A stretch of DNA of 61,757 bases, counting the filler. It is 7 parts of 7 records of this genome, joined end to end, with 100 filler letters (N's around TTAATTAATTAA, not from the genome) between each part and the next. Parts side by side here need not be neighbours in the genome. Positions count along the whole stretch, not along the records: positions 52,773 to 61,757 come from SRR31156797_4693; 6 more parts are not named here. One strand, given 5' to 3'. The notes beneath the pieces were generated by a model. The model ran no database searches. It saw only the letters and a program-made list of their open reading frames with translations, and had not been told where the DNA came from. The position numbers and the translations under genes were made by a program. This document shows positions 2,772 to 61,757 of this stretch, one piece after another (position 1 is the first letter of the stretch; every line of letters starts with the position of its first letter).

Positions 2772-2785
2772 TATTCGCTTAAAAA

Positions 2786-12082: not shown

Positions 12083-12179
12083 CCAAAACCCTCTTTCTTT
12101 AAGAGCAATAAACGATACAACGGTTAATCAGTGAGATATAGTTCATTCCATTTCTTTTTGCAACAAAAAACTTCGTTTC

Positions 12180-12950: not shown

Positions 12951-13024
12951 TTTTGTGCATCCTTCCCTGAAATTTCTGAAAAACAACCGTTATTGTAAAC
13001 GTTTCAAGTTGGAAACGATATTCA

Positions 13025-14023: not shown

Positions 14024-14127
14024 TGTGTTCCTCCTTAATTGTTCAATGCTTAAATACCTAAAATATTAATGATGTGTAAACAAAACGGTAATCATTTTAG
14101 AAGACACGGCGGGAACACCCAAAAGTA

Positions 14128-14529: not shown

Positions 14530-14703
14530 GGTTATGTCAAGCCTCGCACCTTCAACGCCGAAAATCCATGGCGGTTGATGTAAACGGATGGCGGCCCAAT
14601 CTCAAATACGTCCCATCCCGTGCAAAGCACCCAAAACGCCTTATTGCAGAAAAAAAAGTAGACGGCCACCTCACAAAAAACCCTCTCCTCTGTTCAAAAG
14701 CGT

Positions 14704-15165: not shown

Positions 15166-15207
15166 CACATAAACCAAAAAAAATAAACCATTCACCAAAA
15201 ATTAGGA

Positions 15208-15759
15208 TCAGCCCGCAGGCTCGATCAAACCAAGGTTTCCATCGCCTTTTCTGTAAATAACGTTAATCTCTCTCGATTTGGCGTTTCGAAACACCAGGAA
15301 ATCCTGCGGAAGCAACATGAGCTGCATGGCGGCTTCCTCGGGGTCCATGGGCTTGGCGACCATTTTTTCCACCTCAATTGAAAAATTGTCCGGAGACATC
15401 TCAACCGATTCTTCAAGCTCTTCGTCCAAAGCTTCACCCAGGGCATTCTCTTCGGTTTTAACGCTCTCCCCTCGGTGCCTTCTTATTTTACCGATGTGTT
15501 TCTTAACCTGATTTTCGACCTTATCCATGACTTGGTCTATGGCCGAATACATGTCGTCGGTCTCTTCAACCGCTTTGAGTCGAGTCCCATTCAGGCTGAG
15601 CGTCACATCGGCAATGTGCCTGAATTTCTCTACGCTCAAAACGATGTGCGCATCCAAAGGAACATCAAGATATTTTTTGATTTTTGAAATTTTCTCTTCC
15701 GCATAGTTTTTTAAACTCCCTATGGGGTCCGTGTGCCTGAATGTCACTGTTACGTCCAT
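15208..15759 (-). CDS. hpf: Ribosome hibernation promoting factor (long HPF)
   Basis: VTFRH, DMYSAIDQV, C-terminal KPMDPEEAAMQ..FLVFRN..VIYRK.DG.LGLIEP. Confidence 0.93.
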   Translation of the reverse strand: MDVTVTFRHTDPIGSLKNYAEEKISKIKKYLDVPLDAHIVLSVEKFRHIADVTLSLNGTRLKAVEETDDMYSAIDQVMDKVENQVKKHIGKIRRHRGESVKTEENALGEALDEELEESVEMSPDNFSIEVEKMVAKPMDPEEAAMQLMLLPQDFLVFRNAKSREINVIYRKGDGNLGLIEPAG

Positions 15760-15844
15760 AAAATTCCCTCCGGATATCTAGGTGTGAACAATATAATCAA
15801 CCTTTCCGGCAAACCCATAAAACGCCACATGGCGCTGCCATGGC

Positions 15845-32859: not shown

Positions 32860-33149
32860 AACCGCTCCTCCCGGCTCTCTTCATAGACGGCCCTCAGCTG
32901 CTCCTCATCTGCTGCCGGGCCTTTCCGCTTCAGAGAAGGAACAAACCGTTCCCTTGCCTCAAGCATTCCACCGCTTCTGATCTGATCCTCGGTATATTCC
33001 GCAAGAGGATCGGTACTATTCGAATCGAACGGAATCAACTGGGCTACGACACGATTATGATCGGTGATCAGCACTTTCTCCCCCTCTTTTACAAGAGAAA
33101 GATAACGGCTCAGAGAGTTTCTAAGATTCCTTATTCCTACGGTTAACAT
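32856..33149 (-). CDS. Phd/YefM-family antitoxin
   Basis: VGIRNLRNSLSRYLSLVKEGEKVLITDHNRVVAQL. Confidence 0.88.
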   Translation of the reverse strand: MLTVGIRNLRNSLSRYLSLVKEGEKVLITDHNRVVAQLIPFDSNSTDPLAEYTEDQIRSGGMLEARERFVPSLKRKGPAADEEQLRAVYEESREERF

Positions 33150-33155
33150 AATACA

Positions 33156-33184
33156 ATTGTAGCCACTGTGGCTACAGATGTAAA
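33156..33184 (-). promoter_or_regulatory. Sigma70 promoter with overlapping palindromic TA operator
   Basis: Minus strand TTTACA (33184-33179), 17 nt, TACAAT (33161-33156); perfect inverted repeat TGTAGCCAC-T-GTGGCTACA at 33158-33176. Confidence 0.8.
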
Positions 33185-33488
33185 GATCACTGCAGCAGGG
33201 ATCAAAGAGAAAATGAGTCAGGTCCGCAGGGCGGCGCGGAGCAGGCCCGAGCCAGAGTCATACCGCAGGCGAAGCCGAGGAACGAGCTCGACAAAAAGCG
33301 GGCCGGCAAAACGAATTGGAACGTGTGTCCGTGCGTTTAATTCGTAAGCCGCACTATATAAAGCCCGACCCCGGCAGTCGCGGAACGGGGCTGCCGGGGT
33401 GCCGCCCCCTCCCCCACCCGATTGTAAAGAAAAGTTAATAATAAATTCCTTTCTTTTGGGAATATCCCGATGTACTATGGTGTCTATC

Positions 33489-33821
33489 ATGAGCGATGTA
33501 ATCAATCTCCTGTTCGATACGGAACAGAAGGCCCGCGATGTAGTGGAGAAGGCCCGGGAAGAAGCCGGGGGTATCCGCAGGGAGGCCGACGAGAAGGCCG
33601 AAGGGATTATCAGAGAGGCGAAGGAAGAGGCTCTGGCTCTGCAGCGGGAGGCTCTGGACAGGGTCCGCCGCGAACTGGACGACGAGAAGTCCCGGCTGAC
33701 GGCGGAACTGGAGGAGAAGCAGAGGCACCTCATGTCCGATGCGGACGCCCTTCTGGACAAAGCGGCTGACGATATATTCCGGATGCTCAGATCCGGGGAC
33801 GAGGAGCCGGACCGGTTCTGA
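33489..33821 (+). CDS. V/A-type ATPase peripheral stalk subunit G/H
   Basis: Charged helical EQKARDVVEKAREEA pattern; first gene of the operon; start MSDVINLL. Confidence 0.75.
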   Translation: MSDVINLLFDTEQKARDVVEKAREEAGGIRREADEKAEGIIREAKEEALALQREALDRVRRELDDEKSRLTAELEEKQRHLMSDADALLDKAADDIFRMLRSGDEEPDRF

Positions 33822-34909
33822 TGTCTTCCTACCTTAAGCGCTACAGTTTCATCAACGCCAAATTGAAGACCAGGACGGACTTTCTTCTGGACGAGGCTTT
33901 TTTCCGCCGCCTGGAAGACCGGCCCAACCTGAACGAAGCCATGATACTGCTGAAGGACACGGTCTACGGGGTCATGCATGCCAGCTATGAACAGACCGGC
34001 GACCTGAAGATGGCCGAGAAGGAGCTCAGGCTGAAGGAGATCGGCTTCTACAGGGAGCTGAAGCGTCACGGTGACGAGCTGCTCTCGGGTTTTCTGGATG
34101 TCCTGCTCCTCAAATTCGATGTGGAGGTCCTGAAGGAGTGGATCCGGCTCTGGTACGACAGCCGCGTCCGGGGGCGGGATGTCAGCGTCCTCAGTCCCTA
34201 TATGATAAGGGAAAAGGTGGTCGAGGATTTTGAGCACGACACCCTTCTGAACTGCTCCGACCCCCAGGCTCTCTACGAGCATCTGGCCAGGGGGGTCTAC
34301 AAAGGGCTCTTTACGGCCCTCCGGGAGAGGGCGGAACCTCTTGAGAGCCTCTACGATCTGGAAAAGTCCCTGGACAGGCTGCGCTTTGCCCGGGTGCTGG
34401 CATACGCCGATGCCTTCCCCCCCGCCGATGCGGATGTGATCCGCCGGATAACGGGAATGGAGATAGACTTTGAGAATATGCTGAGCCTGCTCCGGATGGG
34501 GGATGTCCTGCCGGCGGGAAAACTGCTGGACGACCTGATAGACGGGGGACCGCAGCTGAACCGGGACGGCCTGGGACGGACAAAAGGCGATGGCGATGAT
34601 TCCCGGAAGTCGGAGGCTGAGAAAAGCCGCGAGATAGTCGGCAGCGCCCTGGCCTCCTACGGCGGCATGGGAAGCCTCCTTTTGAAGGAGGAGAGCGGCC
34701 GTGAGGATAAGCTGGCCATGGTTGAGGCGGTTTTGCGGGAGCTGGAGAAGCGGGAGGCCGACCGTCTTATGAGGGGCTCGCCCTTCTCCATCGGCATCAT
34801 GCTCAGTTATTTTATGCGCAAGGAAAGGGAGGCCGCCAGGCTGGTACGGATACTGAACGACCTGCAGTACCGTTCGGACGGCTCCTCCGGACACAGGGGG
34901 ATGTCATGA
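33821..34909 (+). CDS. V/A-type ATPase subunit C (d)
   Basis: YSFINAKLK N-terminus, EIDFENM, PFSIGIMLSYF..KERE C-terminus. Confidence 0.85.
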   Translation: MSSYLKRYSFINAKLKTRTDFLLDEAFFRRLEDRPNLNEAMILLKDTVYGVMHASYEQTGDLKMAEKELRLKEIGFYRELKRHGDELLSGFLDVLLLKFDVEVLKEWIRLWYDSRVRGRDVSVLSPYMIREKVVEDFEHDTLLNCSDPQALYEHLARGVYKGLFTALRERAEPLESLYDLEKSLDRLRFARVLAYADAFPPADADVIRRITGMEIDFENMLSLLRMGDVLPAGKLLDDLIDGGPQLNRDGLGRTKGDGDDSRKSEAEKSREIVGSALASYGGMGSLLLKEESGREDKLAMVEAVLRELEKREADRLMRGSPFSIGIMLSYFMRKEREAARLVRILNDLQYRSDGSSGHRGMS

Positions 34910-36963
34910 TTCTCAGCTCGACGATGCAGCATCTTACGGCGGTGGTCACGCGGAGGCATATGGACTCGGTGACCCGGGCGCTATTGGAGCGGGGGGTCAT
35001 GGACTTCCTGGCCTGTTCGGAGATCCCGGCCCTCAACGATCTGAGGCTGAAGGAGCTGGATGTGAAGATCACCGGCGCCAGGCTGAAAGAGGCGCGCCTG
35101 AGGATTGAGACCCTCCTGAAATCCGCCGATCTGCGCCCCGTTCCCAACAGTGGGAATACCGAATCCGGTGAAGATTCCCTTGATAAAATTGAGAAGATGC
35201 TGGACGCCTTGAGCACGGAGCAACAGGGTTTCCGGGACAAACAGCATGCATGCCAGAACGAGATCAACCGCCTGGAGGACCTGAGGCGTCAGGTCGGGCT
35301 CTTCGGAGACGACAAAGACCTGATCACCCGGGCCGAGCAGGGTTCGTCGGGCTTCTCCTTCCTCTTTATGGAAACCGGTTCGGTCCCGTCGGAGAACACG
35401 GTGGAGATGAACAGGGAGCTGGCCTCCCTGACCACGGTGGTCCTGGAGGCCGCCGTCGCCGGCGGTCTGCGCTGGTGCATCGTCATGGGGATGAAGAAGG
35501 ATCAGAAGGAGCTGGAACGGCGCCTCGATTCGGTGGGCTGGCACAAGGGCTCCCTTCCCCCCGAGGCGGTGTCCGCCCTGGCCGGGGACAAGGGGGGCGC
35601 TCGCTTCAGCGACGACATGAGGCTCCGGGTGGAGGAGCTGAAGAAGAAGCAGCAGGTCCTGCTGGAGGAGTCCCGCAGCTATGTGGAGGGGAAGCGGGAG
35701 TGGCTTCAGTCCACCTGGTCCGATCTGAGGATCAGGGAGCTGAACCTGAAGATCCAGTCCTACTTCGCCGCCTCCGAGGCCTGCGTCCTGTTCAACGGCT
35801 GGGTCCCTTCGGATCAAAGGGAGCTCCTGGACGCGAGCATCAGGGAGGCCGCCGAGGGCCAATGCCTTCTGGAATGGCACGGCGCCGAATGGGTGCAGGA
35901 GAACACGGGAGGGAAGGTATCCGCCCCCGTCCAGATGAGGAATCCCGGTTTCCTGGGCCCCTTTGAGATGCTGGTGAGGAACTTCGGCATACCCGGCTAC
36001 GGCACGGTGGATCCCACCCTGCTGGTGGCCTTTACCTATCTGACCATGTTCGGCCTGATGTTCGGCGACGCGGGCCACGGGCTGGTGCTGCTGCTGGCCG
36101 GGCTCCTGCTTCACAGGCGGGCCCGGAAAAAGAGCAGAGAGACGGGGGCCGATGTGAATCCCCTTTTCGCCCTGATCGCCTATTGCGGCGGAGCGGCCAT
36201 GCTGGCGGGCGTCCTTTTCGGATCCTACTTCGGCTATTCCTGGCTCCCTCCCCTCTGGTTCAACTACCACGGGGTGGTAACGGGCCACGGCGGCGGCCAT
36301 CCTGTTATCAGCAGCATCTACGACATCCTTCTGATCACCATATGGTTCGGGATCATCGTCCTGGCCCTGGGCATCGTCCTCAACATCGTCAACTGCGTCC
36401 GGCAGAGGGACTGGATCCGCCTCGTCTTCAACAAGGCGGGGATCCTGGGGGGGTGGATGTACGCGGCGGGCGTTTATGCGGCCTTCGCCTTCGTCCGCAG
36501 CTCCTATAAGGTCCTGCCTCCCCCTCTTTTCCTATTCTTCGGCCTGGGCCTCCCCGCCCTGCTCCTCCTGTTCAAGGAGCCTTTGGAGCACCGCATGGAG
36601 GGGCACAGGATGCGCTGGGGCCCCCAGGCCTTGTTAAATCTTATAATGGAGTGGGTGGTGGAGCTTTTAGAGATCTTCTCCGGCTATCTGGCCAACACCC
36701 TCAGCTTTATGAGAGTCGCGGGGCTGGGAATAGCCCATGTGAGTCTGATGAGCGCCTTCTTTCAGATGGCGGAAATGGGAGGCCCCCTGGGAGCCCCCTT
36801 TATCCTGCTTCTGGGAAACGCTCTTGTTATCGCTCTGGAAGGGCTTTCGGCAGGGATTCAGTCGCTCAGGCTGAACTACTACGAGTTCTTCAGTAAATAT
36901 TTCAATGGTACGGGACGGGCCTATGCACCTGTGTCCCTGAAAACCCGTGTTGGAGGTAATTAA
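34906..36963 (+). CDS. V/A-type ATPase subunit I (a)
   Basis: GWVP, DPT, FGLMFGDAGHG, NTLSFMRV, IQSLRLNYYEFFSKYF. Confidence 0.95.
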   Translation: MILSSTMQHLTAVVTRRHMDSVTRALLERGVMDFLACSEIPALNDLRLKELDVKITGARLKEARLRIETLLKSADLRPVPNSGNTESGEDSLDKIEKMLDALSTEQQGFRDKQHACQNEINRLEDLRRQVGLFGDDKDLITRAEQGSSGFSFLFMETGSVPSENTVEMNRELASLTTVVLEAAVAGGLRWCIVMGMKKDQKELERRLDSVGWHKGSLPPEAVSALAGDKGGARFSDDMRLRVEELKKKQQVLLEESRSYVEGKREWLQSTWSDLRIRELNLKIQSYFAASEACVLFNGWVPSDQRELLDASIREAAEGQCLLEWHGAEWVQENTGGKVSAPVQMRNPGFLGPFEMLVRNFGIPGYGTVDPTLLVAFTYLTMFGLMFGDAGHGLVLLLAGLLLHRRARKKSRETGADVNPLFALIAYCGGAAMLAGVLFGSYFGYSWLPPLWFNYHGVVTGHGGGHPVISSIYDILLITIWFGIIVLALGIVLNIVNCVRQRDWIRLVFNKAGILGGWMYAAGVYAAFAFVRSSYKVLPPPLFLFFGLGLPALLLLFKEPLEHRMEGHRMRWGPQALLNLIMEWVVELLEIFSGYLANTLSFMRVAGLGIAHVSLMSAFFQMAEMGGPLGAPFILLLGNALVIALEGLSAGIQSLRLNYYEFFSKYFNGTGRAYAPVSLKTRVGGN

Positions 36964-36964
36964 A

Positions 36965-37321
36965 GTGAATCTGAAACAGAAACTGTCCCTGCATCTGTCC
37001 GTCCGGGTCGTGGTCCTCACGGCGATGATCCTGATCCTGGGCCTGGTGGCCACCGGCAACCTGACGGCCCAGGAGGCCCATGCCGAGGCGCCCGCCGTGT
37101 CCGCCCAGGTCCAGACCTTCGGTCTTATGGCCGCCGCCCTGGCCTTCGCCGCAGCGGCCATCGGCGCGGGCATAGCCATCAGCCATGTGGGCTCTGCCGC
37201 CATGGGCGCCATCGGGGAGAAGCCGGAGATCGCCGGCCAGGCCCTGATCTTCATCGCCCTGGCCGAGGGTATCGTGGTCTTCGGTTTTATCACGGCCCTG
37301 ATGATCCTGGGTAAGATCTGA
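36965..37321 (+). CDS. V/A-type ATPase proteolipid subunit K (c)
   Basis: GAGIA..VGSAAMGAIGEKPE, ALAEGIVVFG with the essential Glu; GTG start after GGAGGT. Confidence 0.93.
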   Translation: MNLKQKLSLHLSVRVVVLTAMILILGLVATGNLTAQEAHAEAPAVSAQVQTFGLMAAALAFAAAAIGAGIAISHVGSAAMGAIGEKPEIAGQALIFIALAEGIVVFGFITALMILGKI

Positions 37322-37370
37322 TCGCGGGGACACCGCGGAAGCGGCTCTCCCCGCAGGAGCATTTGAAGAA

Positions 37371-37676
37371 ATGAAGTATTTCGTTATCGGCGATGAGGAT
37401 ACGGTTCTCGGTTTCGGTCTGGTGGGCGTCACGGGACGCGTCGCCGTGACCGCCGCAGAGGCGGAACAGGCCCTGAACGAGGCCATGGAGGATGCGGATA
37501 CGGGCATCATCCTGATCACCGAACGTCTGGCGGAATTAATACGATCCCTGGTAGACCGGTTTCTGTTTACCAGGCAGTTTCCCCTGATCCTGGAGATCCC
37601 CGACCGCATGGGCCGGGTGGAGGGGAAACCATCCCTGAAAGAAATGGTGAATGATGCAATCGGAATCAAGCTCTGA
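37371..37676 (+). CDS. V/A-type ATPase subunit F
   Basis: VIGDEDTVLGFGLVG, PLILEIP. Confidence 0.93.
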   Translation: MKYFVIGDEDTVLGFGLVGVTGRVAVTAAEAEQALNEAMEDADTGIILITERLAELIRSLVDRFLFTRQFPLILEIPDRMGRVEGKPSLKEMVNDAIGIKL

Positions 37677-38313
37677 ACTGCTGGAAGGCATCCTTGCCGA
37701 TGCCCGGGCCGAAGCGGATAAGCTTGTGGAGCAGGCCCGCACACAGGCCGCCGAGACCCTGGAGAGCGCCCGCGACCGGGCGGCGAAGATCCTGAACGGC
37801 GCCGAGGACGGGGCGGCGAAGCAGGGAGCGGAACTGAAGAAGAACAGCCGCTCCGCCCTGATACTCCTGAAAAGCCGTCACGAACTGAAGAGCGGCCGGA
37901 CGCTGGCCGCCGAGGTGATGCGCCGGGTCCGGATCCGCCTGGAGGAGTTCAGGAAGGATCCCTCCTACCCCGCTCTGCTGGAGGAGCTCCTCATCGAGGC
38001 GGCCCTGGGGCTGGGCGTGTCTGAGGCCTTTGTCAACGGAGGCGAGGCGGAGCGGACGCTCATGGCCCCCGCCCTGCTGGCCCGTGTTGAACGGCGCCTG
38101 AAAGAGGAGTTCGGCGAGAGGATTGCCTTGAGTCTCTCCGGCGATTCCGCCCTGGCCGAACAGGGTGTGGAGCTGAGAGACAGGGAGGGGCGCAGGGCCT
38201 TCAGGAACAGTTTCACCGCCCGCCTGGACCGGAAGGAGCAGCAGGTGAGGGACATCATTGAGTCCCGGCTGCGGGAGGCCGATACGGCGGCATCGGGGGA
38301 GGACAAGGCATGA
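37651..38313 (+). CDS. V/A-type ATPase subunit E
   Basis: N-terminal coiled coil (ILADARAEA), C-terminal GVEL...NSFTARL. Confidence 0.85.
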   Translation: MMQSESSSELLEGILADARAEADKLVEQARTQAAETLESARDRAAKILNGAEDGAAKQGAELKKNSRSALILLKSRHELKSGRTLAAEVMRRVRIRLEEFRKDPSYPALLEELLIEAALGLGVSEAFVNGGEAERTLMAPALLARVERRLKEEFGERIALSLSGDSALAEQGVELRDREGRRAFRNSFTARLDRKEQQVRDIIESRLREADTAASGEDKA

Positions 38314-38699
38314 ACGAACGGATAGCCGGCAGGGTCAGACGGGTCAACGGCCCGGTCATAGAGGCCGCCGAAATCCCCGACGCCCTGATGATGGAGATGG
38401 TCTTCGTCGGCGAACAGAGGCTTGTGGGAGAGGTGATCAAGCTCAAGGGAGAGAGCGCGGTCATCCAGGTCTACGAGGACACCACGGGCATCGCCCCGGG
38501 GGACAGGATCTACGGATCGGGTCATCCCCTGAGCGTGCAGCTCGGCCCCGGCCTGATGGGAACCATCTACGACGGGATTCAGCGCCCCCTGGAGGCCCTC
38601 TACGGCGCTTCGGGGGAGTTTATAGACAAGGGCCTCTCCTTCTCCGCCCTGGCGGAAGAAAAGGAGTGGGAGTTCAGCCCCCTCTGCGCCGAGGGAGAG
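38310..38699 (+). CDS. V/A-type ATPase subunit A, 5' fragment
   Basis: VNGPVI, LVGEVI, QVYEDTTG, LGPGL.GTIYDGIQRPL; truncated at spacer. Confidence 0.95.
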
Positions 38700-38799
38700 N
38701 NNNNNNNNNNNNNNNNNNNNNNNNNNNNNNNNNNNNNNNNNNNTTAATTAATTAANNNNNNNNNNNNNNNNNNNNNNNNNNNNNNNNNNNNNNNNNNNN
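38700..38799. other. Artificial contig spacer
   Basis: N run with TTAATTAATTAA. Confidence 0.97.
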
Positions 38800-39522
38800 T
38801 TTCTTAAGAACCGGAATTGGAATCTCATTGTAATGGAAAATGCTGGCAGCCAGTCCGGCGTCTGCTTGTCCCTTAGTGAAGACATCAACAAAATGATCTT
38901 CGGAACCTGCTCCACCGGATGCAATGATGGGAATTTTTAACATGTTGGCCATTTTAGACAGTTCTGTATTGGCAAAACCATTCTTCGTTCCGTCGTGGTT
39001 CATCGAGGTGAACAAGATCTCTCCTGCTCCACGATCTTCGGCTTCTTTTGCCCACGAAAATAACTCTTTGTCGGTTGGGATACGCCCTCCGTTTACGGTT
39101 ACCGTCCAATGTTCGTTTTGGTCGCCACGGGCATCGATAGCCACAACCACAAACTGACTTCCAAAGTTTAAAGCCAAATCGTCGATTAATCTTGGATTTC
39201 GTACTGCTGATGAGTTGATAGAAATTTTATCAGCCCCGGCAGCCAACAGTTTTTCAGCATCGCTCAATTCACTAATTCCACCACCAACTGTAAAAGGAAT
39301 ATTGATGTGTGCTGCAATTCGTTTTACCAGTTCAACAAAAGTTTTACGACCTTCGTGTGTAGCGGTAATATCTAAAAAACAAAGCTCATCAGCTCCATCA
39401 GCAGCATATTTTGCTCCCAGTTCAACCGGATCGCCCACTTCTTTAATGTCGACAAAATTAATTCCTTTAACGGTTTGTCCGTCCCGGATATCAAGGCATG
39501 GTATTATTCGTTTTGCAAGCAT
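38800..39522 (-). CDS. hisF: Imidazole glycerol phosphate synthase cyclase subunit (3' end truncated)
   Basis: [35 protein letters not shown]. Confidence 0.96.
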
Positions 39523-52672: not shown

Positions 52673-52772
52673 NNNNNNNNNNNNNNNNNNNNNNNNNNNN
52701 NNNNNNNNNNNNNNNNTTAATTAATTAANNNNNNNNNNNNNNNNNNNNNNNNNNNNNNNNNNNNNNNNNNNN
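52673..52772. other. Artificial contig spacer
   Basis: N run with TTAATTAATTAA. Confidence 0.97.
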
Positions 52773-52802
52773 CCGGGGGTTCGAATCCTCCCTGGCGCAC
52801 CA
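52773..52802 (+). tRNA. tRNA 3' end (T-arm, acceptor strand, CCA); likely attL, identity possibly Arg
   Basis: CCGGGGGTTCGAATCCTCCCTGGCGCACCA; anticodon not in the window. Confidence 0.85.
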
Positions 52803-52812
52803 CGAGAAAATC

Positions 52813-52850
52813 AAGGGATTCAAGCACAATACTTGAGTCCCTTTTCTTTT
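52813..52850 (+). terminator. Terminator after the tRNA
   Basis: AAGGGATTCAAG (52813-52824) / CTTGAGTCCCTT (52832-52843), then TTCTTTT. Confidence 0.75.
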
Positions 52851-52872
52851 TACTTTTGCGCAGACTTGCTTT

Positions 52873-52892
52873 TTTGCTCCAAATTTGCTCCA
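52873..52892 (+). repeat. Tandem direct repeat, candidate integrase arm-type sites
   Basis: TTTGCTCCA at 52873-52881 and 52884-52892, between att site and integrase start. Confidence 0.55.
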
Positions 52893-52918
52893 CTCATAGT
52901 AAGAAAGGAGCAACTACA

Positions 52919-53908
52919 ATGGCGAGCATCCGCAAGCGTGGCCCCTATCAATGGGAAGTCCGAGTCCGCAAAAAAGGCTACTCCACCCAATCAAAGACAT
53001 TCTCCAAGAAAGCTGACGCCGACGAGTGGGCGCGCGAGATCGAGTCTGAAATGACACGTAGCGTGTTCATATCCCGCAAAGAGGCTGAATCCACCACGCT
53101 CGACGACGCACTGGAACGCTTCAAAGAGGAGTTCCTCCCGAAGTATGCCCAACCAAAGCAGATGAAGAGTCGGATTAACGTTCTGCAAAAGCATGACATA
53201 TGTGAAATGACGCTAGCCGCAATACGGGGAAAGGATGTTGCCAGCTACATCAAAGACCGCGAAGACGAGGGACGCTCCTCGCAGACCATCCTGCACGAAG
53301 TCAACTTACTATCACGAATCTACGAGACCGCCCGAAAAGATTGGGGGATGGAATCTTTGAGAAATCCCACAAGGCGAGTCAACAAGCCCAAACAAAACAA
53401 AGGCCGAACTCGAAGGCTTGAAAAAGGTGAAGAGAAAAAGCTCCTCAAGAAAGCGCCAGAAGACCTGAAACCAATCATCCTCTTCGCCCTAGAGACGGCC
53501 ATGAGGCGTGGCGAGATAGCAATGATGCGCTGGGAGCATGTTGATCTGAAAAAACGCTACGTCCATCTACCCAAGACGAAAAACGGCGAAGCGCGGTCTG
53601 TTCCGCTCTCCCTTGCGGCCTTGAAAATACTCAAGGACTTGCCCCGGCAGATTAAGGGAGACGTTTTTCTTTTGATGGCCGACACCATCACCAAAAAGTT
53701 CACGACAGCCGTAAAAAACGCAGAGCTAAAAAACTTGCGCTTTCACGATCTGCGCCATGAGGCCACCAGCCGTTTGTTTGAGAACACGGACCTGGACTTT
53801 ATGGAAGTAAAAGCGATAACGGGGCATAAGAGTATGCAAATGCTGGCTAGGTATAGCCATTTGAGAGCGCATAAGTTGGCGGATAGATTAGATGGGGCAA
53901 AACGATAA
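52919..53908 (+). CDS. int: Tyrosine recombinase/integrase (Rci/HP1-like)
   Basis: MASIRKRG arm domain; TAMRRGE, TKNG, FHDLRHE, TGHKS..ML.RYSH; ATG after AAGGAG. Confidence 0.93.
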   Translation: MASIRKRGPYQWEVRVRKKGYSTQSKTFSKKADADEWAREIESEMTRSVFISRKEAESTTLDDALERFKEEFLPKYAQPKQMKSRINVLQKHDICEMTLAAIRGKDVASYIKDREDEGRSSQTILHEVNLLSRIYETARKDWGMESLRNPTRRVNKPKQNKGRTRRLEKGEEKKLLKKAPEDLKPIILFALETAMRRGEIAMMRWEHVDLKKRYVHLPKTKNGEARSVPLSLAALKILKDLPRQIKGDVFLLMADTITKKFTTAVKNAELKNLRFHDLRHEATSRLFENTDLDFMEVKAITGHKSMQMLARYSHLRAHKLADRLDGAKR

Positions 53909-54023
53909 ACCCAAGATAGACTTCTGAAAAACTCAGAGAACCAACAAAGAACACAAAAGGGCAAAACTCAAGCCTTGCCCTCAATGTAACCAGAACATTA
54001 AATCTCAGTTAACAAGAATAGCA

Positions 54024-55508
54024 TCAAAGCATTTCATCTACTATCCACTGTTTGGTGGTTTCATCGATATCAGAATATCCAAGCGCTTGGGCAAAATGTA
54101 AGTAAATAAAGATATCAAATAGACTTCTATCATTATTCTTAAAGTCGAAACCAGACAGCAAAGGCGAAAATAAATTGCTAGGGTTTTTTACAATCTCTTC
54201 AAAAGAAGATACAAATTGACGCATATCCGGAATTTTAACACTCGTATCAAAAATAAATTTTGCAAAATCAGCTACGAGAGGCCCATGTCCCGATCTAGCA
54301 AAATCAATAAATATATCTCTATCTCCCAGCAAAACATTGCCTAGGTGCAAGTCTCCATGAATAACTGTACTAGTGTATTTGATTATACTTTCTGTTGCGG
54401 GACTTTGCTCACGGTTCACTACTGATTTAACAAGATCTATCTTTTTCAAATTTTGTTTTAAGGAAACACGCAAAGAATCTGATGAAAACCAGTTGCTAAC
54501 GACATCAAATAGCAGATCCTCTTTTTGACAGAAGTTGTCAGAAACATAAAAATCGTGAAACAAATCTTGAAGCCTTGCCGATGAATCAGAAAAACTTTTT
54601 GAATTATCAATTGTTCGTGATGCGACGTCTGCACCTGAAGCAAATTGATATCCAATTGCAGCACATTCATTTACTTTGATCGCATGTGAATACATCAATG
54701 GTAAGGACCTGGCATATTCCAATCCACAACTATAAAACATATTTCTGTGCGCCTGGGATTCTTGATGCAACTTATATGGATTCGCAGACAACTTCACGAA
54801 CCAGCGATTATTAGTACTAATATCTTTATAGGTCGTTATAGCATTTACTTCCAGAGTAAACGCGCCTGAAAAACCTCCAGATATATTCTGAACACTAACA
54901 CGTTGCGCAAAATAGAATAGATAATTGAACAGGATACGCCAGGATGGAGTTTTATCGTCGAGTAAGTTTTCTAAACTCTTACAGACTACAAAATCCAACT
55001 TATGATCCTGCTTGAAGTGATAATGACCTATCGCACTTTCAAGACGTCGCAAGTGTGCTCGCTTACAAATCCCATTCCAATAATCTTGATTGAATGTGTT
55101 TGAACTAACGACATGTTTTTCCAAGTGACCATCAAACCCAAAGCCACCACCTATACCTACAAAATAGAGTTCTTCCTTATTAAAAAGTTGTGACACAGCA
55201 ACTACAGGCAACCATGGAGCTGCATCACGCAGATATGGAAGGACAGCACTACCTCCTAACAAATCATCAGCTAGATATCCGAATGCATTTTTAGGTGTGT
55301 TGGTAAGCTCAAGATCAATAAGCGCTAGGTCATAATCATTTAAATCATCCTTTTCGGGCAGGATGGACAACACGTAATCAAGATCATTGTCCTCTGGACA
55401 TATAAAATCAATTTGTGGTTTTAATCCAATAGTCTCAAGTTCACGCTTGATCATAGGCAGTACATTAGGCTGATCATCAATTAGAAGAATACGATTAGAA
55501 GATATCAT
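54024..55508 (-). CDS. Receiver domain fused to an APH/protein-kinase-like phosphotransferase
   Basis: REC: ILLIDD, ALIDL, VAVS, HLEK. Kinase: GGFSGA loop, WFVK, HGDLHLGN, IDFA. Confidence 0.75.
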   Translation of the reverse strand: MISSNRILLIDDQPNVLPMIKRELETIGLKPQIDFICPEDNDLDYVLSILPEKDDLNDYDLALIDLELTNTPKNAFGYLADDLLGGSAVLPYLRDAAPWLPVVAVSQLFNKEELYFVGIGGGFGFDGHLEKHVVSSNTFNQDYWNGICKRAHLRRLESAIGHYHFKQDHKLDFVVCKSLENLLDDKTPSWRILFNYLFYFAQRVSVQNISGGFSGAFTLEVNAITTYKDISTNNRWFVKLSANPYKLHQESQAHRNMFYSCGLEYARSLPLMYSHAIKVNECAAIGYQFASGADVASRTIDNSKSFSDSSARLQDLFHDFYVSDNFCQKEDLLFDVVSNWFSSDSLRVSLKQNLKKIDLVKSVVNREQSPATESIIKYTSTVIHGDLHLGNVLLGDRDIFIDFARSGHGPLVADFAKFIFDTSVKIPDMRQFVSSFEEIVKNPSNLFSPLLSGFDFKNNDRSLFDIFIYLHFAQALGYSDIDETTKQWIVDEML

Positions 55509-55510
55509 AA

Positions 55511-58500
55511 CTACCTCTCAGATGTGCTCTTTTGCAATTCCCCAACAATTGGGAAAGAAATCGACAATGATTTTGTGTCTGAATCAGAATCAAACCTAGT
55601 GACGCTTAAATCACACCCATACGCTGAACAAAATCTTCTTATTATCCTAAGTCCACCTTCGCTTTGTGTATCAATATCTGACTTAATATTGTCAACAACT
55701 TCGATAATTACATCAGAGGCTGTTCGTTTAAGAGTAAATGTTGCTTTGACATCATTTGTTTGAGATTCTCCGTGCCGTTGTAGGTTCGAGATAATCTCCT
55801 CACAAACATGATTAAGCTTATCAAAATCACAAATAACTAGGGGCACAGAAAAATCCCTAATCAATTCGATATTTATTGGTTTTTTATAAGAGTAGGATCT
55901 TAAATCGCTATAATCCTGACTAAAAAGAATTGACTTTGGCAAATAAACAATAAGATCTTTTAATAAATTTCTTAGAGAAGCAATTGATGTTTTAATTTTG
56001 TCTACTTGTTGCAGCAATTCTTCAACATTAACAGCGAGGCCTACGCTTATAAGCTCAGACAATGTCGCAACATGCTTCTCAAGCATGTCAACTTGCGTTT
56101 CAAATGATGGGTGGTGCTTAGAAAAAGAGCTATATAAATTGGAACCAATTATATTGTGCAAAAGCTCTGGGAAATCGTCTGCATACCAACCAGAATAAAC
56201 ATCATTAGCTTTTTTCAACAAACCATCAATATCTGAATCGTCCCTATTATAAGCATCAAAGAATTCTTGAACTGAAAATGTAAGAATACCACTCCTGACA
56301 AACCTAATATACAAATGAGCCAACGAAGTTATTGCAGCATCACTCACACTGTTACGAGTTTTACTGCTATCTGACAGTATATCATAAGTTGACTTCAATG
56401 TTTCATACGATGAGTCGCTGGCAGAATCTTTCCACTTAGTGAGACTTTCAACAAATGAAGGAGGTAGCAAATTAAGTTTTAAAAGTCCCAAACATGTTTC
56501 TTGAACATCTCTATCTGAACCAATATTTTTTGATATCAAAGATACGGCGGAATGAAAAAATTGCCGAGGATTTATTGCTATAAATGCATTTATGTATTTT
56601 CCAACAGGACAACTTTTGGAACTACGTGTCATCAACTCCAGAACACGCTCCTGCAATCTAGGATAAGCCTTATAAAGTCTTTTTTGAATATTTTTAGTGG
56701 AAAAAATAGAATTATAATATTCAAAAGAATACAACTCAAGAAATCGGTCTATCAAATTAACATCATTCAAAAGAGCTTTATTTAGAGCATTTCTATTAAC
56801 TAAAACAATATCTGATGACTCATAAAGACAGTGTAAGTATGCTCTGTCGAGGCTGTTCGCAGTCAGTTGTGGTGCATTACCAAACTTCAAAAGACTATAA
56901 TCAATGACTTCGACATTTAAAGATTTAATCTTGTTATTAAGAAACTTAACAAGACAATTATCACTAACTGAATTTTTTCGAACAAGATTTAAAATTTGTT
57001 CAAGACATTGCACTTCGGTACACAAAGGGCACCTTGAACTCTCGTAATACGACATCACTGGGAAGTCTATAAAGTATGAAGGGTGAAAATTTGCTCCTTT
57101 GTATCGGTCGATATTACTAAAAAAATTTACATGATCGTGTTCCATTCGCGAAACCAAACACAAAACAGATAAGTCCTCAGGAGCATACCTGGACACATAC
57201 TCAATTGCTCGTCTAACATAATGTCCGCTCGAAATTGCAGGTAAAACAAGGATACACCTGCTGAAAGACTGTTTCGGCGGGGGAGGTGCATTTAAATCTT
57301 TGTCACTAATTTCTTGAATACTTTTCTGTAGATCAAATTTTGCAACGCTAGACCGTATAAAATTCAGGCTCTTATCAGGGTTATAAACAAAAAATCCCCA
57401 AACATCTTCCTTGTTTGTATGAGGCTTTTTCAGCCTCAGAAATTCAATTTGCTTCTTTACCCACTGTTCAATTTCATTTTTCATCCCATAAAAGAGCTTC
57501 GGAAAATCCAAGAACATCGTGTAATGTTTGGAATTATATTCCAAATGACCATGAAGTAATGAGCCAGACTGTTTCACATACGTATATATTAACTTCTTAA
57601 TATCAACTTTTGGTTTGATCTCTCGCTTGTGAAGCGTTGGCAAATTAGTCTTAGCATCTATAAGCTTCACGGATTCATATGTTTTCTTAGTCGATTTCAA
57701 GTCGCACGGCAAATCACGTTGGGGATTAATTTGATCCTTTACCACTGAAGATAATTTTACAAACTCATTCTTTCCTTCTACACCTGTATTAAATTTCCCA
57801 GGTATATACTCGGCACGTGAATCGACAACAGCAATAATTCGGTCAATATTTGTATTAACGATGCTTTTAAGTAGTTTTTTTAACTGATCACCTCGGCATA
57901 TAACGTCTGTTATAACGACATTCTTCTTTCCAGCGTATTTGACAAGCTCAGGTATTACTTTGTGAACACTATAAGGGTACTTAAATTCACAATAACCTAC
58001 ATCTTTCCCACGATTTTTGAACTCACCGAGTACTTTAGTACAAAGAGGTTCAAGTGCTGAAGACGCTGATATTAACAACTCGATGTCTTCAGGCAGTTGT
58101 AGGTATATCCATTCAGACAATCTCTGAATGAGCATATGGCACTTCATGGCAGACGTGATTTTGTAAAATTTTTCAGTGTAATACAAGCCTTCGATCAAAA
58201 AGGGGCCATCAGTATCAAGTATCAAGTCAGATGTTATACCATCTCTAATCTGCCCCTGAGTGCCATTTAGATACTCCTCAAGCAGGCTGTTATAATAACT
58301 ATCTTTTATGCTCAGTAATCCATTATCGTTGACATCAAAATATGTATATACAGATTCAACATGTGCGCCTATTGCTACAAAATCATTATCTATAACATCA
58401 CCGACAACGACAGCCATCCCAATACTACGTAAAGACTCTCTTAAATCCGGATCTTCATATAGCGACAGAGCCCGTCTGTTTGCCCAAACAATTACCCTTT

Positions 58501-59788
58501 TCCCTTTATGCAACAGCTGCAAACCAGCTAAGCAAACAGCAAAAGCTCTAGCCGTTAAAGGACTTTTGGGTTGTAATAGCAAATCAACGCCCTCAATATC
58601 TTTTACGCTATTATAGGCGAGTTGAACTCTTCTGAGAGCGTTATCAACATCATCAACATAATCATCGCCAAAAAAAAGATACTTAAACGGGTCATATGCG
58701 CGTATATCAATATTTTTACTCACAGTAGTTGCTGGTGGTATATATTTATTCTGTGCAACCAAATTTAAGGGCAATCTAAGAATAAAATGCGTACCAGGCA
58801 ACTTCGCCAACTTTGATTTTATTAAATCTTTTTTATTAGTTGCATACATTTGCCCTTTATATCTATAGTAATCGATTCCCAAAATTGCTTCTGGTGTTCT
58901 AACAATAACTTGACCACACGCCTTTCGTGCAACTTGAAGTGAAAAATACAATCCTGAAGCAACTTGATCTAAGCTAATCTGATCTCCTTTTAACAAGGCA
59001 TTAATACGTTCTTTTCTTGCGACTTCATCGCTAGTACTAAAGGCTTCAAATGCGTAAGATAGAATCCTTTCTTCTTTTAAAAGTCCGTTTTTGGTCACCA
59101 AAAAAGACTCATAATCATCAGGGACAAACGATCTTATCTTTTCGTTAATACCAGGACCATTATCCCCAATAACAATTTCAATATATTCTGTTCCAGCTTC
59201 AAATACGGTAGTAAAGCCCTTTCTATTTGATGACTTACTAGATGAAATTGCATATGACGCAGCATAATATGGAATATTACCCTGACCGTGAATGAAAGCA
59301 TTTTCAGAAATTTCCTGAAATGCAACTCCAAAAAAATCTTTAATCTTTTCCTTATAAACACCACCGATTTCCGGAATGTTATTGAAATTCGCTAACAGGT
59401 CGGCCGAATGCGATTTTATTTCCCTTTTGGAATTAATGATTGTGATCGGGACGCCTTTTTCCGGAGCGCCTCCTAGCCTGAAATCCGACTTCACCCCTAG
59501 CGAGACCAGCTTTTCCTGAAAACCATATTTTATCCACACCTTATGGAACTGTGAAGCCATCTTTTGAATCGGAGGCATCTCAAAACGGACTCTCACATCG
59601 CGTTTCAACATACTAGCCACCCAAGAAAACAAAAGCGATGCAGGGTGAAAACCAATCCATTCAACATACTTAAAGTCTAAAACAACCGAAGCACTACCCT
59701 GACTGACTGAATAATACCTAGAGAGAATCTCCTCTACGGCACCAACTGTTAATACACTAGGAAGATTAATTTTTTTTGATTTACGCAT
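55511..59788 (-). CDS. 1425-aa multidomain protein: STAS-like / HATPase / PRTase-like x2 / helical / degenerate HATPase
   Basis: VVLDFKYVEWI; EISENAFIHG, IGDNGPGI, SGL, PGT; VVITDVICRG..IAVVDSR; LVLPAISSG..LCLVSR; CPLC; EEIISNLQRHG..VVDN..GGLRII. Confidence 0.7.
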   Translation of the reverse strand: MRKSKKINLPSVLTVGAVEEILSRYYSVSQGSASVVLDFKYVEWIGFHPASLLFSWVASMLKRDVRVRFEMPPIQKMASQFHKVWIKYGFQEKLVSLGVKSDFRLGGAPEKGVPITIINSKREIKSHSADLLANFNNIPEIGGVYKEKIKDFFGVAFQEISENAFIHGQGNIPYYAASYAISSSKSSNRKGFTTVFEAGTEYIEIVIGDNGPGINEKIRSFVPDDYESFLVTKNGLLKEERILSYAFEAFSTSDEVARKERINALLKGDQISLDQVASGLYFSLQVARKACGQVIVRTPEAILGIDYYRYKGQMYATNKKDLIKSKLAKLPGTHFILRLPLNLVAQNKYIPPATTVSKNIDIRAYDPFKYLFFGDDYVDDVDNALRRVQLAYNSVKDIEGVDLLLQPKSPLTARAFAVCLAGLQLLHKGKRVIVWANRRALSLYEDPDLRESLRSIGMAVVVGDVIDNDFVAIGAHVESVYTYFDVNDNGLLSIKDSYYNSLLEEYLNGTQGQIRDGITSDLILDTDGPFLIEGLYYTEKFYKITSAMKCHMLIQRLSEWIYLQLPEDIELLISASSALEPLCTKVLGEFKNRGKDVGYCEFKYPYSVHKVIPELVKYAGKKNVVITDVICRGDQLKKLLKSIVNTNIDRIIAVVDSRAEYIPGKFNTGVEGKNEFVKLSSVVKDQINPQRDLPCDLKSTKKTYESVKLIDAKTNLPTLHKREIKPKVDIKKLIYTYVKQSGSLLHGHLEYNSKHYTMFLDFPKLFYGMKNEIEQWVKKQIEFLRLKKPHTNKEDVWGFFVYNPDKSLNFIRSSVAKFDLQKSIQEISDKDLNAPPPPKQSFSRCILVLPAISSGHYVRRAIEYVSRYAPEDLSVLCLVSRMEHDHVNFFSNIDRYKGANFHPSYFIDFPVMSYYESSRCPLCTEVQCLEQILNLVRKNSVSDNCLVKFLNNKIKSLNVEVIDYSLLKFGNAPQLTANSLDRAYLHCLYESSDIVLVNRNALNKALLNDVNLIDRFLELYSFEYYNSIFSTKNIQKRLYKAYPRLQERVLELMTRSSKSCPVGKYINAFIAINPRQFFHSAVSLISKNIGSDRDVQETCLGLLKLNLLPPSFVESLTKWKDSASDSSYETLKSTYDILSDSSKTRNSVSDAAITSLAHLYIRFVRSGILTFSVQEFFDAYNRDDSDIDGLLKKANDVYSGWYADDFPELLHNIIGSNLYSSFSKHHPSFETQVDMLEKHVATLSELISVGLAVNVEELLQQVDKIKTSIASLRNLLKDLIVYLPKSILFSQDYSDLRSYSYKKPINIELIRDFSVPLVICDFDKLNHVCEEIISNLQRHGESQTNDVKATFTLKRTASDVIIEVVDNIKSDIDTQSEGGLRIIRRFCSAYGCDLSVTRFDSDSDTKSLSISFPIVGELQKSTSER

Positions 59789-60060
59789 ACAATCCCTAAC
59801 GCTTTAAGATTATATATTTCGTGAGGCCTACTCACTACTTTGCGGTAACTTTTAACACTCCACGCAATACGACAATCACATACTTCTTATGCGTATAATT
59901 CAACACGCAGTACATCTCTAAAATATATTTGTCAAAAAATTCGATATTTTCTATAATACTATTCTGACATATCCAAACTTAATCCAAACTTTACCTCTAC
60001 ATAGTCAAACCCTACTCATCCATTCTCTAACTTAAAGTTCTAATTTTGCACCGATATCTG

Positions 60061-60090
60061 TTGACCTTACAACTGTAGATGGTTTAAATT
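60061..60090 (+). promoter_or_regulatory. Candidate sigma70 promoter for the structured RNA/recombinase unit
   Basis: TTGACC (60061-60066), 18 nt, TAAATT (60085-60090), just before the hairpin-rich region begins. Confidence 0.4.
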
Positions 60091-60099
60091 TAGACAAAT

Positions 60100-60700
60100 T
60101 ACTCGATTCATTGAATCGTTTAAGACGACGGATGCGCTAAAGCTGACATTTTGGTCGATCAGCAACGCCGGGAGATCTCCCAGAAGCATCAGATACCCGC
60201 GATTTATCGCCGGCTCTTGGTCACTTAGCTGTCAAACCCTGTGGCCAGTCCTCTGAACGGCAAAGTCTAGCCGCGACGGGGCGGGGCTAATATTAGCCCG
60301 CCGGAGATTGACCACCTCTTTTGGACCGATGTTCCTTTTAGCGCCCCCTAGGTGTAGTGCGTCTAAAAGCCAGAACCAGCGTCCGCCAGCTTCCAATCAC
60401 ATATTACTAGATTGCAGCACACACTTTCTTTTGAGGTGTGCGTCTGTCTCTTTATCCTATGGAGAAAGAGACGGACGGCGGATCGCGTTACTACCGTTAC
60501 TCTTCCATGACGATGAGAAAACTACGGCCGAACTACGGCGGCCAAACACCTCCTCCTGGGTACGCCCAGGTTGCACGACCACCCCTAGCTCTCTGCTCGG
60601 AGACCAGTCTTACGAGGCTGGCTAGATGCTAGGGGGAGCATCCACAGATGCCGGTTACGACCCGCAAAACTGAGATGCAATGGTCATTTTCACTTAACGA
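60100..60700 (+). ncRNA. Putative large structured non-coding RNA / 5' leader of the recombinase
   Basis: More than a dozen hairpins and nested helices, three TACG-capped stems, G-T pairs on the + strand; no credible ORF. Boundaries approximate. Confidence 0.6.
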
Positions 60701-60715
60701 CCCCGGAGGTAGAAA

Positions 60716-61519
60716 ATGGATTTGCGATACCAAGCGGCAAAACTGTTGGGGAAAAACAGACGGGCTGGGGTGTTAACTCAGCAAAAAAATGCCGGGCAGG
60801 TGCGGAGACTCTGCGATATCATTCAGGACAAATACGCCCTTCAGAACATCCGCCACCTTAAGACGAAGCACATTCTGGGGGCTATTGAAGACTTGAAGTC
60901 TCAAGGCCTCGGCTCCTCAACTCTGGCTTCATACGCCACAGCTGCGCGTCGCATCGCCGAGGCTATCGATAAGCAAAATATTGTTCCCCGAACCAATAAG
61001 GAGATGGGGATAAGTCGTGCTGGCGACAGGTTGAAGCCAGTTACTGCCAACATGAACAAAATTCATGATGTGACAGCCCTGCTTTATGAAAAAGAAAAAT
61101 GGTTGGGATTAGCGGCTGAGATGCGTGAGCAATTTGGCCTTAGGGCAAAAGAATCGCTACTTTCGCATGAAGAGAAAAACGGCACATTGATTGTTAAAGG
61201 TAGCAAAGGAGGACGCCCCCGACAGGTTCCAATACGCAATGAGTCTCAACAAGAACTTGTTGAGCGAGTAAACGCCTATATTCATCGCAACGAACGAACC
61301 TCGTTAATCCCTACAAACCTGTCATTAAAACAGGCTTTAAAAAAGCAAGCGAACACGCTGCAGAGACTAGGTGCGACCAAAGATAATAAAGCTCACGCCC
61401 ATGCCGCGCGGCACGAGTATGCTCAACGTTTAGCTAGCTCTGGGAAAAGTCGGTCAGACATCTCCGAGGAATTAGGACACGGCAGGAGAGAGGTGGTTTC
61501 ACATTACGTTGCAAGCTAA
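60716..61519 (+). CDS. Compact tyrosine recombinase (SAM-like N-domain plus catalytic domain)
   Basis: FGLRAKES (R), GSKGGRPR (K), HAARHEYAQ (HxxR), ELGHGR..VVSHY (H, Y); GGAGGT RBS. Confidence 0.88.
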   Translation: MDLRYQAAKLLGKNRRAGVLTQQKNAGQVRRLCDIIQDKYALQNIRHLKTKHILGAIEDLKSQGLGSSTLASYATAARRIAEAIDKQNIVPRTNKEMGISRAGDRLKPVTANMNKIHDVTALLYEKEKWLGLAAEMREQFGLRAKESLLSHEEKNGTLIVKGSKGGRPRQVPIRNESQQELVERVNAYIHRNERTSLIPTNLSLKQALKKQANTLQRLGATKDNKAHAHAARHEYAQRLASSGKSRSDISEELGHGRREVVSHYVAS

Positions 61520-61525
61520 ACTTGA

Positions 61526-61635
61526 TCGCCACCCTCTTAAGGCGAAGTTCTCAGTAGGGCCGCATCTTACACAACCCTACTGAGATCACCGCCACAAGGG
61601 GCACCTGCCATCGTCCTTAGGACAAGCCCCCGGTG
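61526..61635 (+). other. Structured 3' flank of the recombinase gene
   Basis: TCGCC/GGCGA; TCTCAGTAGGG (61549-61559) / CCCTACTGAGA (61575-61585); nested CACCG/CGGTG, GGGGC/GCCCC, GTCC/GGAC. Confidence 0.55.
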
Positions 61636-61755
61636 CTAAGCATCATACTTTATACGCTTCACGACGTTAAACTGGGTGCATTTGCGTTTAAAAGCATCAG
61701 CAGCATCTTTTTCGCCGAAGCCAACGACAGATGTGGGTTCACTTTGTTGGACCAC
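61636..61755 (-). CDS. C-terminal fragment of a convergent hypothetical protein
   Basis: Open minus-strand frame from the window edge, VVQQSEPTSVVGFGEKDAADAFKRKCTQFNVVKRIKYDA, to TAG at 61638-61636. Confidence 0.4.
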   Translation of the reverse strand: MVQQSEPTSVVGFGEKDAADAFKRKCTQFNVVKRIKYDA

Positions 61756-61757
61756 TG

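Follow-up and report, generated by a model that had tools for sequence, protein, structure and literature searches.

A probable MpsA-like mobilisation module with a long structured block ahead of its gene in a tRNA-associated island

The window analysed here is a stretch of 61,757 nt in which seven parts of one genome are joined end to end, with 100 filler letters between each part and the next; the last part (positions 52,773 to 61,757, record SRR31156797_4693) carries on its + strand a gene for a 267-aa protein with a tyrosine-recombinase fold (60716..61519), directly preceded by a block of structured non-coding DNA. The unit 60061-61635 is probably an MpsA-like mobilisation module of an integrative mobilisable island located at a tRNA gene. 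According to this proposal, the 267-aa protein would be an atypical relaxase of the MpsA/PF12835 type (MOB_M), which would nick the origin of transfer (oriT) of the island and so let the coupling protein and the type IV secretion system of a helper element carry one strand across. A promoter lying just upstream would drive sense transcription of the ~620 nt ahead of the gene into a long, highly structured leader overlapping the DNA-level oriT, as the 650-700-nt transcript of Salmonella genomic island 1 (SGI1) does, and this leader RNA may control the translation of the relaxase or help the assembly of the relaxosome.

The initial annotation of the locus had described a compact recombinase flanked on both sides by folded sequence, and imagined a self-contained module in which a large RNA or a folded single strand would bind, guide, regulate or serve as substrate for the enzyme; it knew of no large cognate RNA for this type of recombinase. 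A large folded nucleic acid, probably RNA, does belong to the enzyme. A precedent exists in SGI1, however, where MpsA needs a small RNA (sRNA), the sgm-sRNA, which derives from the 650-700-nt transcript (PMC6414798, PMC9299015).

The 267-aa protein and its relatives

The open reading frame (ORF) at 60716-61519 has a GGAGG ahead of its start (60705-60709), and its product passes the Pfam cut-offs for both PF00589 (Phage_integrase; 38.9 bits for a cut-off of 27.1) and PF12835 (Integrase_1; 37.8 bits for a cut-off of 23), the match to the N-terminal family PF12834 being weak and under the cut-off (E 0.0015). When the protein is aligned with 30 homologues sharing 28-88% identity, the residues R143, K164, H229, R232, H255, and Y264 do not vary in any of the 31 sequences, which bears out the full catalytic set announced at first. 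The AlphaFold2 model built on this alignment (pLDDT 93.0, pTM 0.73) consists of a helical N-terminal domain followed by the catalytic one, with nothing ahead of them; the protein is therefore a compact two-domain enzyme of the Xer/Cre type. The arm-binding domain is lacking, as annotated, although a core-binding-like domain is present. The best PDB matches of the model in Foldseek are XerA, XerH, IntI (2a3v), Tn1549 Int, and Cre (E about 1e-6, TM 0.44-0.59), and the matches to the NCBIfam models of XerA, XerC, XerS, and the integron integrase all fall far under their cut-offs.

The connection with mobilisation comes from PF12835, the signature given to the “INT_DTR_like” relaxases in a classification of genomic islands that names mpsA of SGI1 as its example (PMC10484663). 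Most of the 81 homologues of the protein have a precomputed match to this family, whose cut-off is likewise exceeded in G235, G269, G360, and G386 by the homologue found there. Tyrosine-recombinase-like relaxases were recognised only recently: a 2026 preprint describes the MOB_M group as the commonest relaxases in chromosomes, 96% of them near an integrase, though no more than three have been studied (10.64898/2026.01.13.699239). These are MpsA of SGI1 (PMC6414798), MobK of pIGRK (PMC8152469), and TcpM of pCW3; no nick site is given in the parts of three papers that we drew on.

The genomic contexts of the relatives point in the same direction. In two loci (L048 and L067), a type IV coupling protein gene (PF12696, PF02534, PF10412) directly follows the homologue, while in other relatives AlpA-type excisionase-like genes follow it. 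A row of the same kind is observed in pSIO1 (NC_006860.1, 1934-4819), a 4.9-kb Vibrio plasmid where a homologue of the PF12835 type is followed by a 73-aa ORF and then by the gene of a type IV coupling protein; pSIO1 is typed as non-mobilisable and none of its four listed genes is annotated as a relaxase. Typing tools have probably overlooked a mobilisable plasmid here. A homologue is present in 198 plasmid records, of which 120 are typed as non-mobilisable, and many of those listed measure 4-20 kb. Membership in MOB_M calls for a link to conjugation and for an oriT. For the former, we found the adjoining coupling protein genes of L048, L067, and pSIO1, together with the presence of a second recombinase-like gene beside the island's own integrase; for the latter, a family hairpin 240-480 nt upstream of the gene with adjoining direct repeats, which constitutes a putative oriT.

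A DNA search of plasmids with the module returned no match, and nothing but one 31-nt chance match was found among the 61 relatives of the nearest genome that were compared. Viral contigs contain just two relatives, both weak (25% identity), and there is therefore no link to phages.

Structure and motifs of the block upstream

The conserved non-coding region, 60098..60715 on the + strand, is a probable long leader RNA or sRNA precursor that also holds a candidate oriT. Its left edge is fixed at 60098, slightly before the start first given to the unit (and not within 60100-60116), because contigs from two other studies (X2 and X3; marine and seawater metagenomes) begin to match the window at precisely that position, continuing up to 61422 in one case and 61182 in the other, with 90-95% likeness (one of them also has pieces below 90%). 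Ahead of 60098, both contigs share one and the same sequence, which is not that of the window; the module therefore circulates in marine samples with other cargo.

Compared with shuffled sequences, the block folds with z = −4.9 on the + strand and z = −3.2 on the − strand (616 nt). BLASTN finds it in four close loci, and an alignment of six sequences has a mean column identity of 71%. No ORF of the block is open in all six close relatives, so that a hidden MpsB-like small protein was not found. The initial annotation had named, as grounds against its reading, a match to a known Rfam family, or to an origin or oriT unrelated to the recombinase: a search of 59000-61757 on both strands, with E values up to 10, returned no family but one chance microRNA match (25.3 bits for a gathering score of 100), and the candidate oriT proposed here would be the enzyme's own substrate.

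The consensus structure computed by RNAalifold on the six sequences comprises 126 pairs in 21 helices. Cells that pair amount to 94.2%, versus 84.9% in shuffles and 35-45% when partners are slid by 1-3 columns. Both sides have changed in 53 of the 126 pairs, versus 21.3±3.3 in shuffles (none of 500 reaching 53) and 8-13 after sliding, and the margin is large and spread across 17 of the 21 helices; as the structure was inferred from these same six sequences, which are akin to one another, the shuffle figures overstate the significance, which is to be counted against our proposal. The structure of the block is real even so, and the tie first suggested between the enzyme and a large folded element, here conserved and covarying, is upheld.

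Is the folded molecule RNA or DNA? Structures were predicted for both strands, and only the helices found in both were counted. Among their wobble pairs, 21 are G·T, which work on the + strand, versus 5 A·C, which would work on the − strand (binomial p = 0.0025, the cells not being independent). Three covarying hairpins of the + strand (helices 16, 19, and 21; 60555-60570, 60604-60621, and 60649-60666), with 3, 6, and 6 pairs changed on both sides, respectively, bear tetraloops whose letters vary and yet remain YNMG in 17 of 18 cases as aligned, where chance would give 1/16. The corresponding hairpin of the Geobacter-type subfamily has a YNCG loop in 28 of 35 sequences and a YNMG loop in 30. 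One has to keep in mind that YNMG/UNCG loops are specially stable in RNA. Finally, a sigma-70-like promoter reading into the block, TTGACC-18-TAAATT, was recognised by pattern on the + strand at 60061..60090, with a predicted start near 60097; a TTGAC-type −35 box and a −10-like hexamer stand 26-45 nt before the first conserved helix in four of seven relatives by scan, and in L091 by eye. Another sigma-70 promoter, considered at TACACT, was discarded for want of a conserved −35 ahead of it. Wobble bias, YNMG loops, and promoter-like site favour RNA, and transcription of the block would be from the sense strand.

Three short elements of the block deserve attention. The most extended is a long hairpin at 60441..60477 (+), 239-275 bp upstream of the gene, with invariant arms GTCTCTTT / AAAGAGAC; this family-wide inverted repeat, found by pattern and by covariance model, is a candidate oriT core. 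The pattern itself occurs in 17 of 89 loci, which represent 13 distinct places. In 21 of 77 sources, covariance model R1 detects the hairpin ahead of the gene, at a distance of 240-480 nt from the start codon and down to about 34% protein identity. Not only the pairing of the arms but also their sequence is conserved, and there are compensatory variants that keep the stem (GTCACTTT/AAAGTGAC, ATCTCTTT/AAAGAGAT, and GTCTCTTG/CAAGAGAC), whereas loop length differs among relatives (2 to ~35 nt), the loop often lengthening the stem. A compensated stem with a variable loop fits an extruded or single-stranded hairpin rather than a core site with a fixed 6-8-bp spacer.

Next to this hairpin, two direct AACTAC repeats lie 11 nt apart at 60520..60536 (+); they are invariant in a seq­uence alignment of seven members (A4), and the two copies are 22-24 nt apart in L002 and L030. 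Hairpin and repeats are the candidates for the position of oriT. The third element is CACTTAAC at 60691..60698 (+), the form taken in the window by a family motif, ACACTYAAC, located 18-25 nt before the start codon and just ahead of the ribosome-binding site. In the 35 Geobacter-type loci (L005-L079), C-T-CACTCAAC is invariant (35/35) and most have the full CCTACACTCAAC, 30-60 nt before the start codon; the hairpins flanking it covary, with 13 of 16 pairs changed on both sides (75 cells, versus 22.0±3.6 in shuffles). The motif is a candidate protein-binding or nick site for the whole protein family. Two motifs persist down to about 33% protein identity.

A copy of the block standing by itself was also observed, in L106 (G375:C55, 1385-1667), without any relaxase gene (R1, 105.8 bits; R2, 72.9 bits). 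It is followed by a 134-aa ORF that looks, from its translation, like the C-terminal piece of an IS3-type transposase, and it could be either a decayed island or an oriT-only hitcher.

Mobilisation compared with other readings

Among the closest known systems is the mobSGI1 module of SGI1 (Kiss et al. 2019; Nagy et al. 2021). Its MpsA is tyrosine-recombinase-like, with an oriT within ~700 bp before the gene (PMC6414798). Its 2.2-kb mob region is described as a succession of promoter P5, the 650-700-nt primary RNA, mpsA, and mpsB, where the primary RNA spans the three inverted repeats of the 125-bp oriT and the functional sgm-sRNA corresponds to its core, about 280 nt long and immediately ahead of mpsA (PMC9299015). 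Deletion of the sgm-sRNA abolishes SGI1 transfer by a mechanism left unexplained in the same source; the core excludes oriT, pairing with oriT is not required, and the authors suggest a role in the conjugation complex (PMC9299015).

The window resembles SGI1 in having a tyrosine-recombinase-fold protein distinct from the integrase, within an integrative mobilisable island, and about 600-750 nt of functional non-protein-coding DNA with inverted repeats directly before the gene. Order and sizes are also near: a promoter-like site, a 618-nt sense block, an inverted repeat midway, about 240 nt of helices, and the gene. In SGI1, oriT is reported ~290-410 bp upstream of mpsA, to be compared with the 239-275 bp of our hairpin. 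Differences are, however, to be noted. MpsA is given as about 320 aa (Y319) and needs a separate 98-aa protein, MpsB, whereas the window protein, shorter at 267 aa, includes an N-terminal helical domain of its own; the hosts here, in place of Gammaproteobacteria, are Desulfovibrionaceae and a marine bacterium rich in AT; and traG, traN, and sgaC are not in the visible part of the window island. The RNA structure of SGI1 is a single-sequence prediction, unlike that of the window block, which has covariation support, and the two are likened by layout.

The two other studied proteins offer parallels too. MobK (pIGRK, Klebsiella, with oriT1; Nowak et al. 2021) is a tyrosine-recombinase-like relaxase preceded by a 456-bp intergenic region that contains oriT with inverted and direct repeats, and its nicking depends on the catalytic tyrosine (PMC8152469). 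The window protein likewise has homologues on plasmids of very small size; MobK is, however, said to lack a core-binding domain, no RNA is reported for it in the text we drew on, and the likeness is one of description. TcpM (pCW3, Clostridium perfringens), the archetype of MOB_M, has 266 aa, is annotated as a “MobM family relaxase”, and is directly followed by FtsK/coupling-type genes, but it shows no specific similarity to the window protein and has no PF12835 match. TcpM was, consequently, rejected as a bridge to MOB_M, a group that may, as now defined, hold several independent lineages.

Several points weigh against a mobilisation module with a leader RNA. The link to MpsA comes from the use of PF12835 in one paper (PMC10484663), and TcpM compared with the 267-aa protein family by hhalign reaches a probability of 7.9%, which reflects generic tyrosine-recombinase likeness. 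A coupling protein adjoins the homologue in 2 of the 42 loci with at least 1500 nt downstream, and these two are related to each other. Within the subfamily of the window, the 267-aa gene has no mpsB-like gene after it; in the window no same-strand ORF comes next, and in relatives a terminator does. On the RNA side, the promoter was recognised by pattern alone, in DNA of poor conservation; no more than about 4% of paired cells are G·T, a pair that single-stranded DNA also tolerates when folded; the argument drawn from YNMG loops relies on a general rule of RNA stability; and, among the four sequencing runs found with this stretch, none is an RNA run, the X2 and X3 sequences being DNA contigs.

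The part played by the folded element can be read in two other ways that keep the relaxase. The element could act only as single-stranded DNA, i.e., as an oriT with a priming or single-strand-origin-like region, its transcript being incidental. This reading, which we judge unlikely, keeps its standing through the almost complete Watson-Crick pairing of the helices (546 of 592 non-gap cells, counting those helices found on both strands); besides, the hairpin arms are kept in sequence and pairing, no promoter sequence is conserved ahead of the block, and the oriTs of SGI1, pIGRK, and pCW3, as far as described, are made of inverted repeats upstream of the gene. These oriTs are, however, 125-186 bp long (PMC6414798, PMC8152469), not 600, SGI1 provides a direct precedent for a functional RNA across the same stretch, and YNMG loops, a feature of stable RNA, persist although their letters vary. 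Conversely, the ~600-nt RNA might be an obligatory partner in a ribonucleoprotein relaxosome, where the leader, or a piece processed from it, would position the protein on oriT or hand it over to the foreign coupling protein, with the ACACUYAAC motif and the GUCUCUUU hairpin as RNA and DNA recognition elements; we grant this stronger version a small chance of being right.

Another reading dispenses with mobilisation. The protein could be a genuine site-specific recombinase (a multimer resolvase of the excised island, an invertase, or a cargo exchanger) with an unusually long regulatory 5′ leader, as its full catalytic set, its Xer/Cre-like two-domain fold, and its NCBIfam matches to Xer-type and integron integrase models would suggest, even if these lie below the cut-offs; the left edge of the block, moreover, coincides with the end of the variable cargo. 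Core sites of classical Xer, Cre, and Int enzymes nevertheless have a fixed spacer of 6-8 bp and come in two copies, whereas the spacer of our hairpin varies from 2 to ~35 nt and a scan of 52774-61757 with R1 found no second copy. With a single copy of the hairpin in that part of the window which belongs to the island, a partner site for inversion or excision is missing, and the self-contained module imagined at first, taken as a recombination unit, finds no support. A repeat scan for a second site gave chance-size matches only, the cargo borders being joined by none but the weak repeat I8 (18 nt at 83%), and relatives are coupled to type IV coupling proteins; a true recombinase is, in our opinion, distinctly unlikely. 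Integron integrases with attC, and XerCD with CTX, do provide examples of tyrosine recombinases acting on a folded single strand, and IntI is among the best structural matches. Integrons, however, have arrays of attC sites (57-141 nt each), and the window just one ~600-nt element, adjoining the gene and lacking a partner site. RYYYAAC, an integron-like consensus, agrees with the conserved motif, a point in favour of a recombinase, but the partner motif, order, and size do not fit, and the attC analogy was dropped as a probable coincidence.

Finally, the DNA site could be selected by the RNA within an RNA-protein complex, in the manner of a guide or bridge RNA. Throughout the family there is a strict link between the gene and a large conserved structure resembling RNA, and the role of the sgm-sRNA in SGI1 is itself unexplained, beyond the suggestion of the conjugation complex made by its authors (PMC9299015). 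We hold this reading to be very improbable, as complementarity between block and attachment (att) sites is no higher than in shuffles: the longest block-att match is 7-10 nt, a length reached by 116, 17, and 67 of 200 shuffles (att regions of the window and L087). Single-stranded motifs are invariant, the opposite of a programmable loop, and the SGI1 sRNA core works without oriT or the need to pair with it. The comparison with the bridge RNA of IS110/IS1111 goes no further than a structured non-coding RNA beside a recombinase gene on a mobile element, since the enzyme there is unrelated, of the DEDD/RuvC-like type, and the variable loops of the bridge RNA match target and donor, whereas the unpaired motifs of the window are invariant and without att matches.

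If the module is what we propose, the locus is a diverse and covariation-rich counterpart to the unexplained sgm-sRNA. It supplies, with its relatives, what SGI1 lacks, because the relatives of SGI1 are nearly identical to each other: a diverse set of structures supported by covariation, two motifs, and a natural orphan copy without the gene, all of which are targets for mutagenesis and binding experiments. Genes annotated as “site-specific integrase” in island hot spots can, moreover, mark mobilisable elements that are typed as non-mobilisable. Were the RNA partner obligatory, RNA-dependent DNA processing would be general to PF12835/MpsA-type relaxases, from Gammaproteobacteria to Desulfobacterota, and not an oddity of SGI1.

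Island setting and neighbouring features

The island has its own tyrosine integrase, of 350 aa, encoded at 52856..53908 on the + strand (PF00589, E 3.8e-25), 6.8 kb from the gene of the 267-aa protein; because of it, the latter enzyme should have another job than island integration, as was supposed from the start. The annotation had also placed this integrase beside a tRNA, which is only partly visible: the 3′ end of a tRNA gene, ending in CCA, lies at 52773..52802 (+) and forms the left attachment-site core of the island. ARAGORN finds no tRNA gene in the window because 52674-52772, just before this visible end, reads N (two runs with TTAATTAATTAA between them); one or two tRNA genes probably lie there.

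The missing parts of the picture can be seen in Pseudodesulfovibrio. In L087 (G235), a tRNA-Arg(TCT) at 638-714 is followed by an integrase 82% identical to that of the window, then by a 6.3-kb cargo on the minus strand, unrelated to the window cargo but in the same slot, about 550 nt of non-coding DNA, the homologue (72% identity), and three more genes. The 30-nt repeat that ends the island on the right (12038-12067) is identical over 30/30 positions to 52773-52802 of the window. G235, thus, displays the complete layout: tRNA, integrase, variable cargo, non-coding block and gene, three backbone genes, and repeat. G269 has the same backbone genes, in an 18-kb stretch where neither tRNA nor end repeat was found. 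From this arrangement, it follows that the 267-aa gene and its block sit inside a tRNA-integrated island with a conserved backbone and a variable cargo slot; the window stops short of the right end of the island. The three backbone genes that follow the relaxase gene in the Pseudodesulfovibrio islands (L087, 9720-11892; L089, reverse strand) encode products of 237 aa (weak PIN-like match), 89 aa (weak match to an excisionase/regulator, phrog_66), and 341 aa (no match).

The cargo of the window (54024..59788, − strand) is AT-rich, with a GC content of 0.29-0.45 for about 0.5 in the backbone, and encodes two proteins according to Pfam: one of 494 aa (REC-like/TCAD9/APH-kinase) and one of 1425 aa with HATPase_c, both AT-rich. 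In L087, the cargo (1854-8142) includes a pentapeptide-repeat protein and a 1507-aa AAA protein with a weak likeness to PDC-M54A, a candidate for defence. PADLOC gave no match for the two cargo proteins of the window. The slot between the island integrase and the mob block looks like a hot spot for defence cargo.

Downstream of the 267-aa gene, a terminator-like hairpin with 27-nt arms lies between convergent genes (61533..61601, +), the second gene being an ORF on the − strand of which the window holds only the 3′ end (61638..61757; reverse frame open to a stop near 61638, running past the window end). The initial annotation had counted these ~115 nt in the system along with the folded sequence upstream. 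The hairpin is real (z = −4.6), but its sequence is not conserved among relatives, three of the five aligned (L087, L027, and L028) having classical intrinsic terminators there; this flank was, therefore, rejected as part of the system, and only the upstream one retained.

GC content steps up at 60100, from about 0.35 to about 0.52, and stays so up to the window end, and a second GC-rich patch (52750-53950) contains the 350-aa integrase. Elsewhere in the window, GC is also raised at 12000-17000 (0.45-0.52) and 33000-39000 (0.55-0.64) over a background of ~0.35, and these two stretches are probably other acquired DNA.

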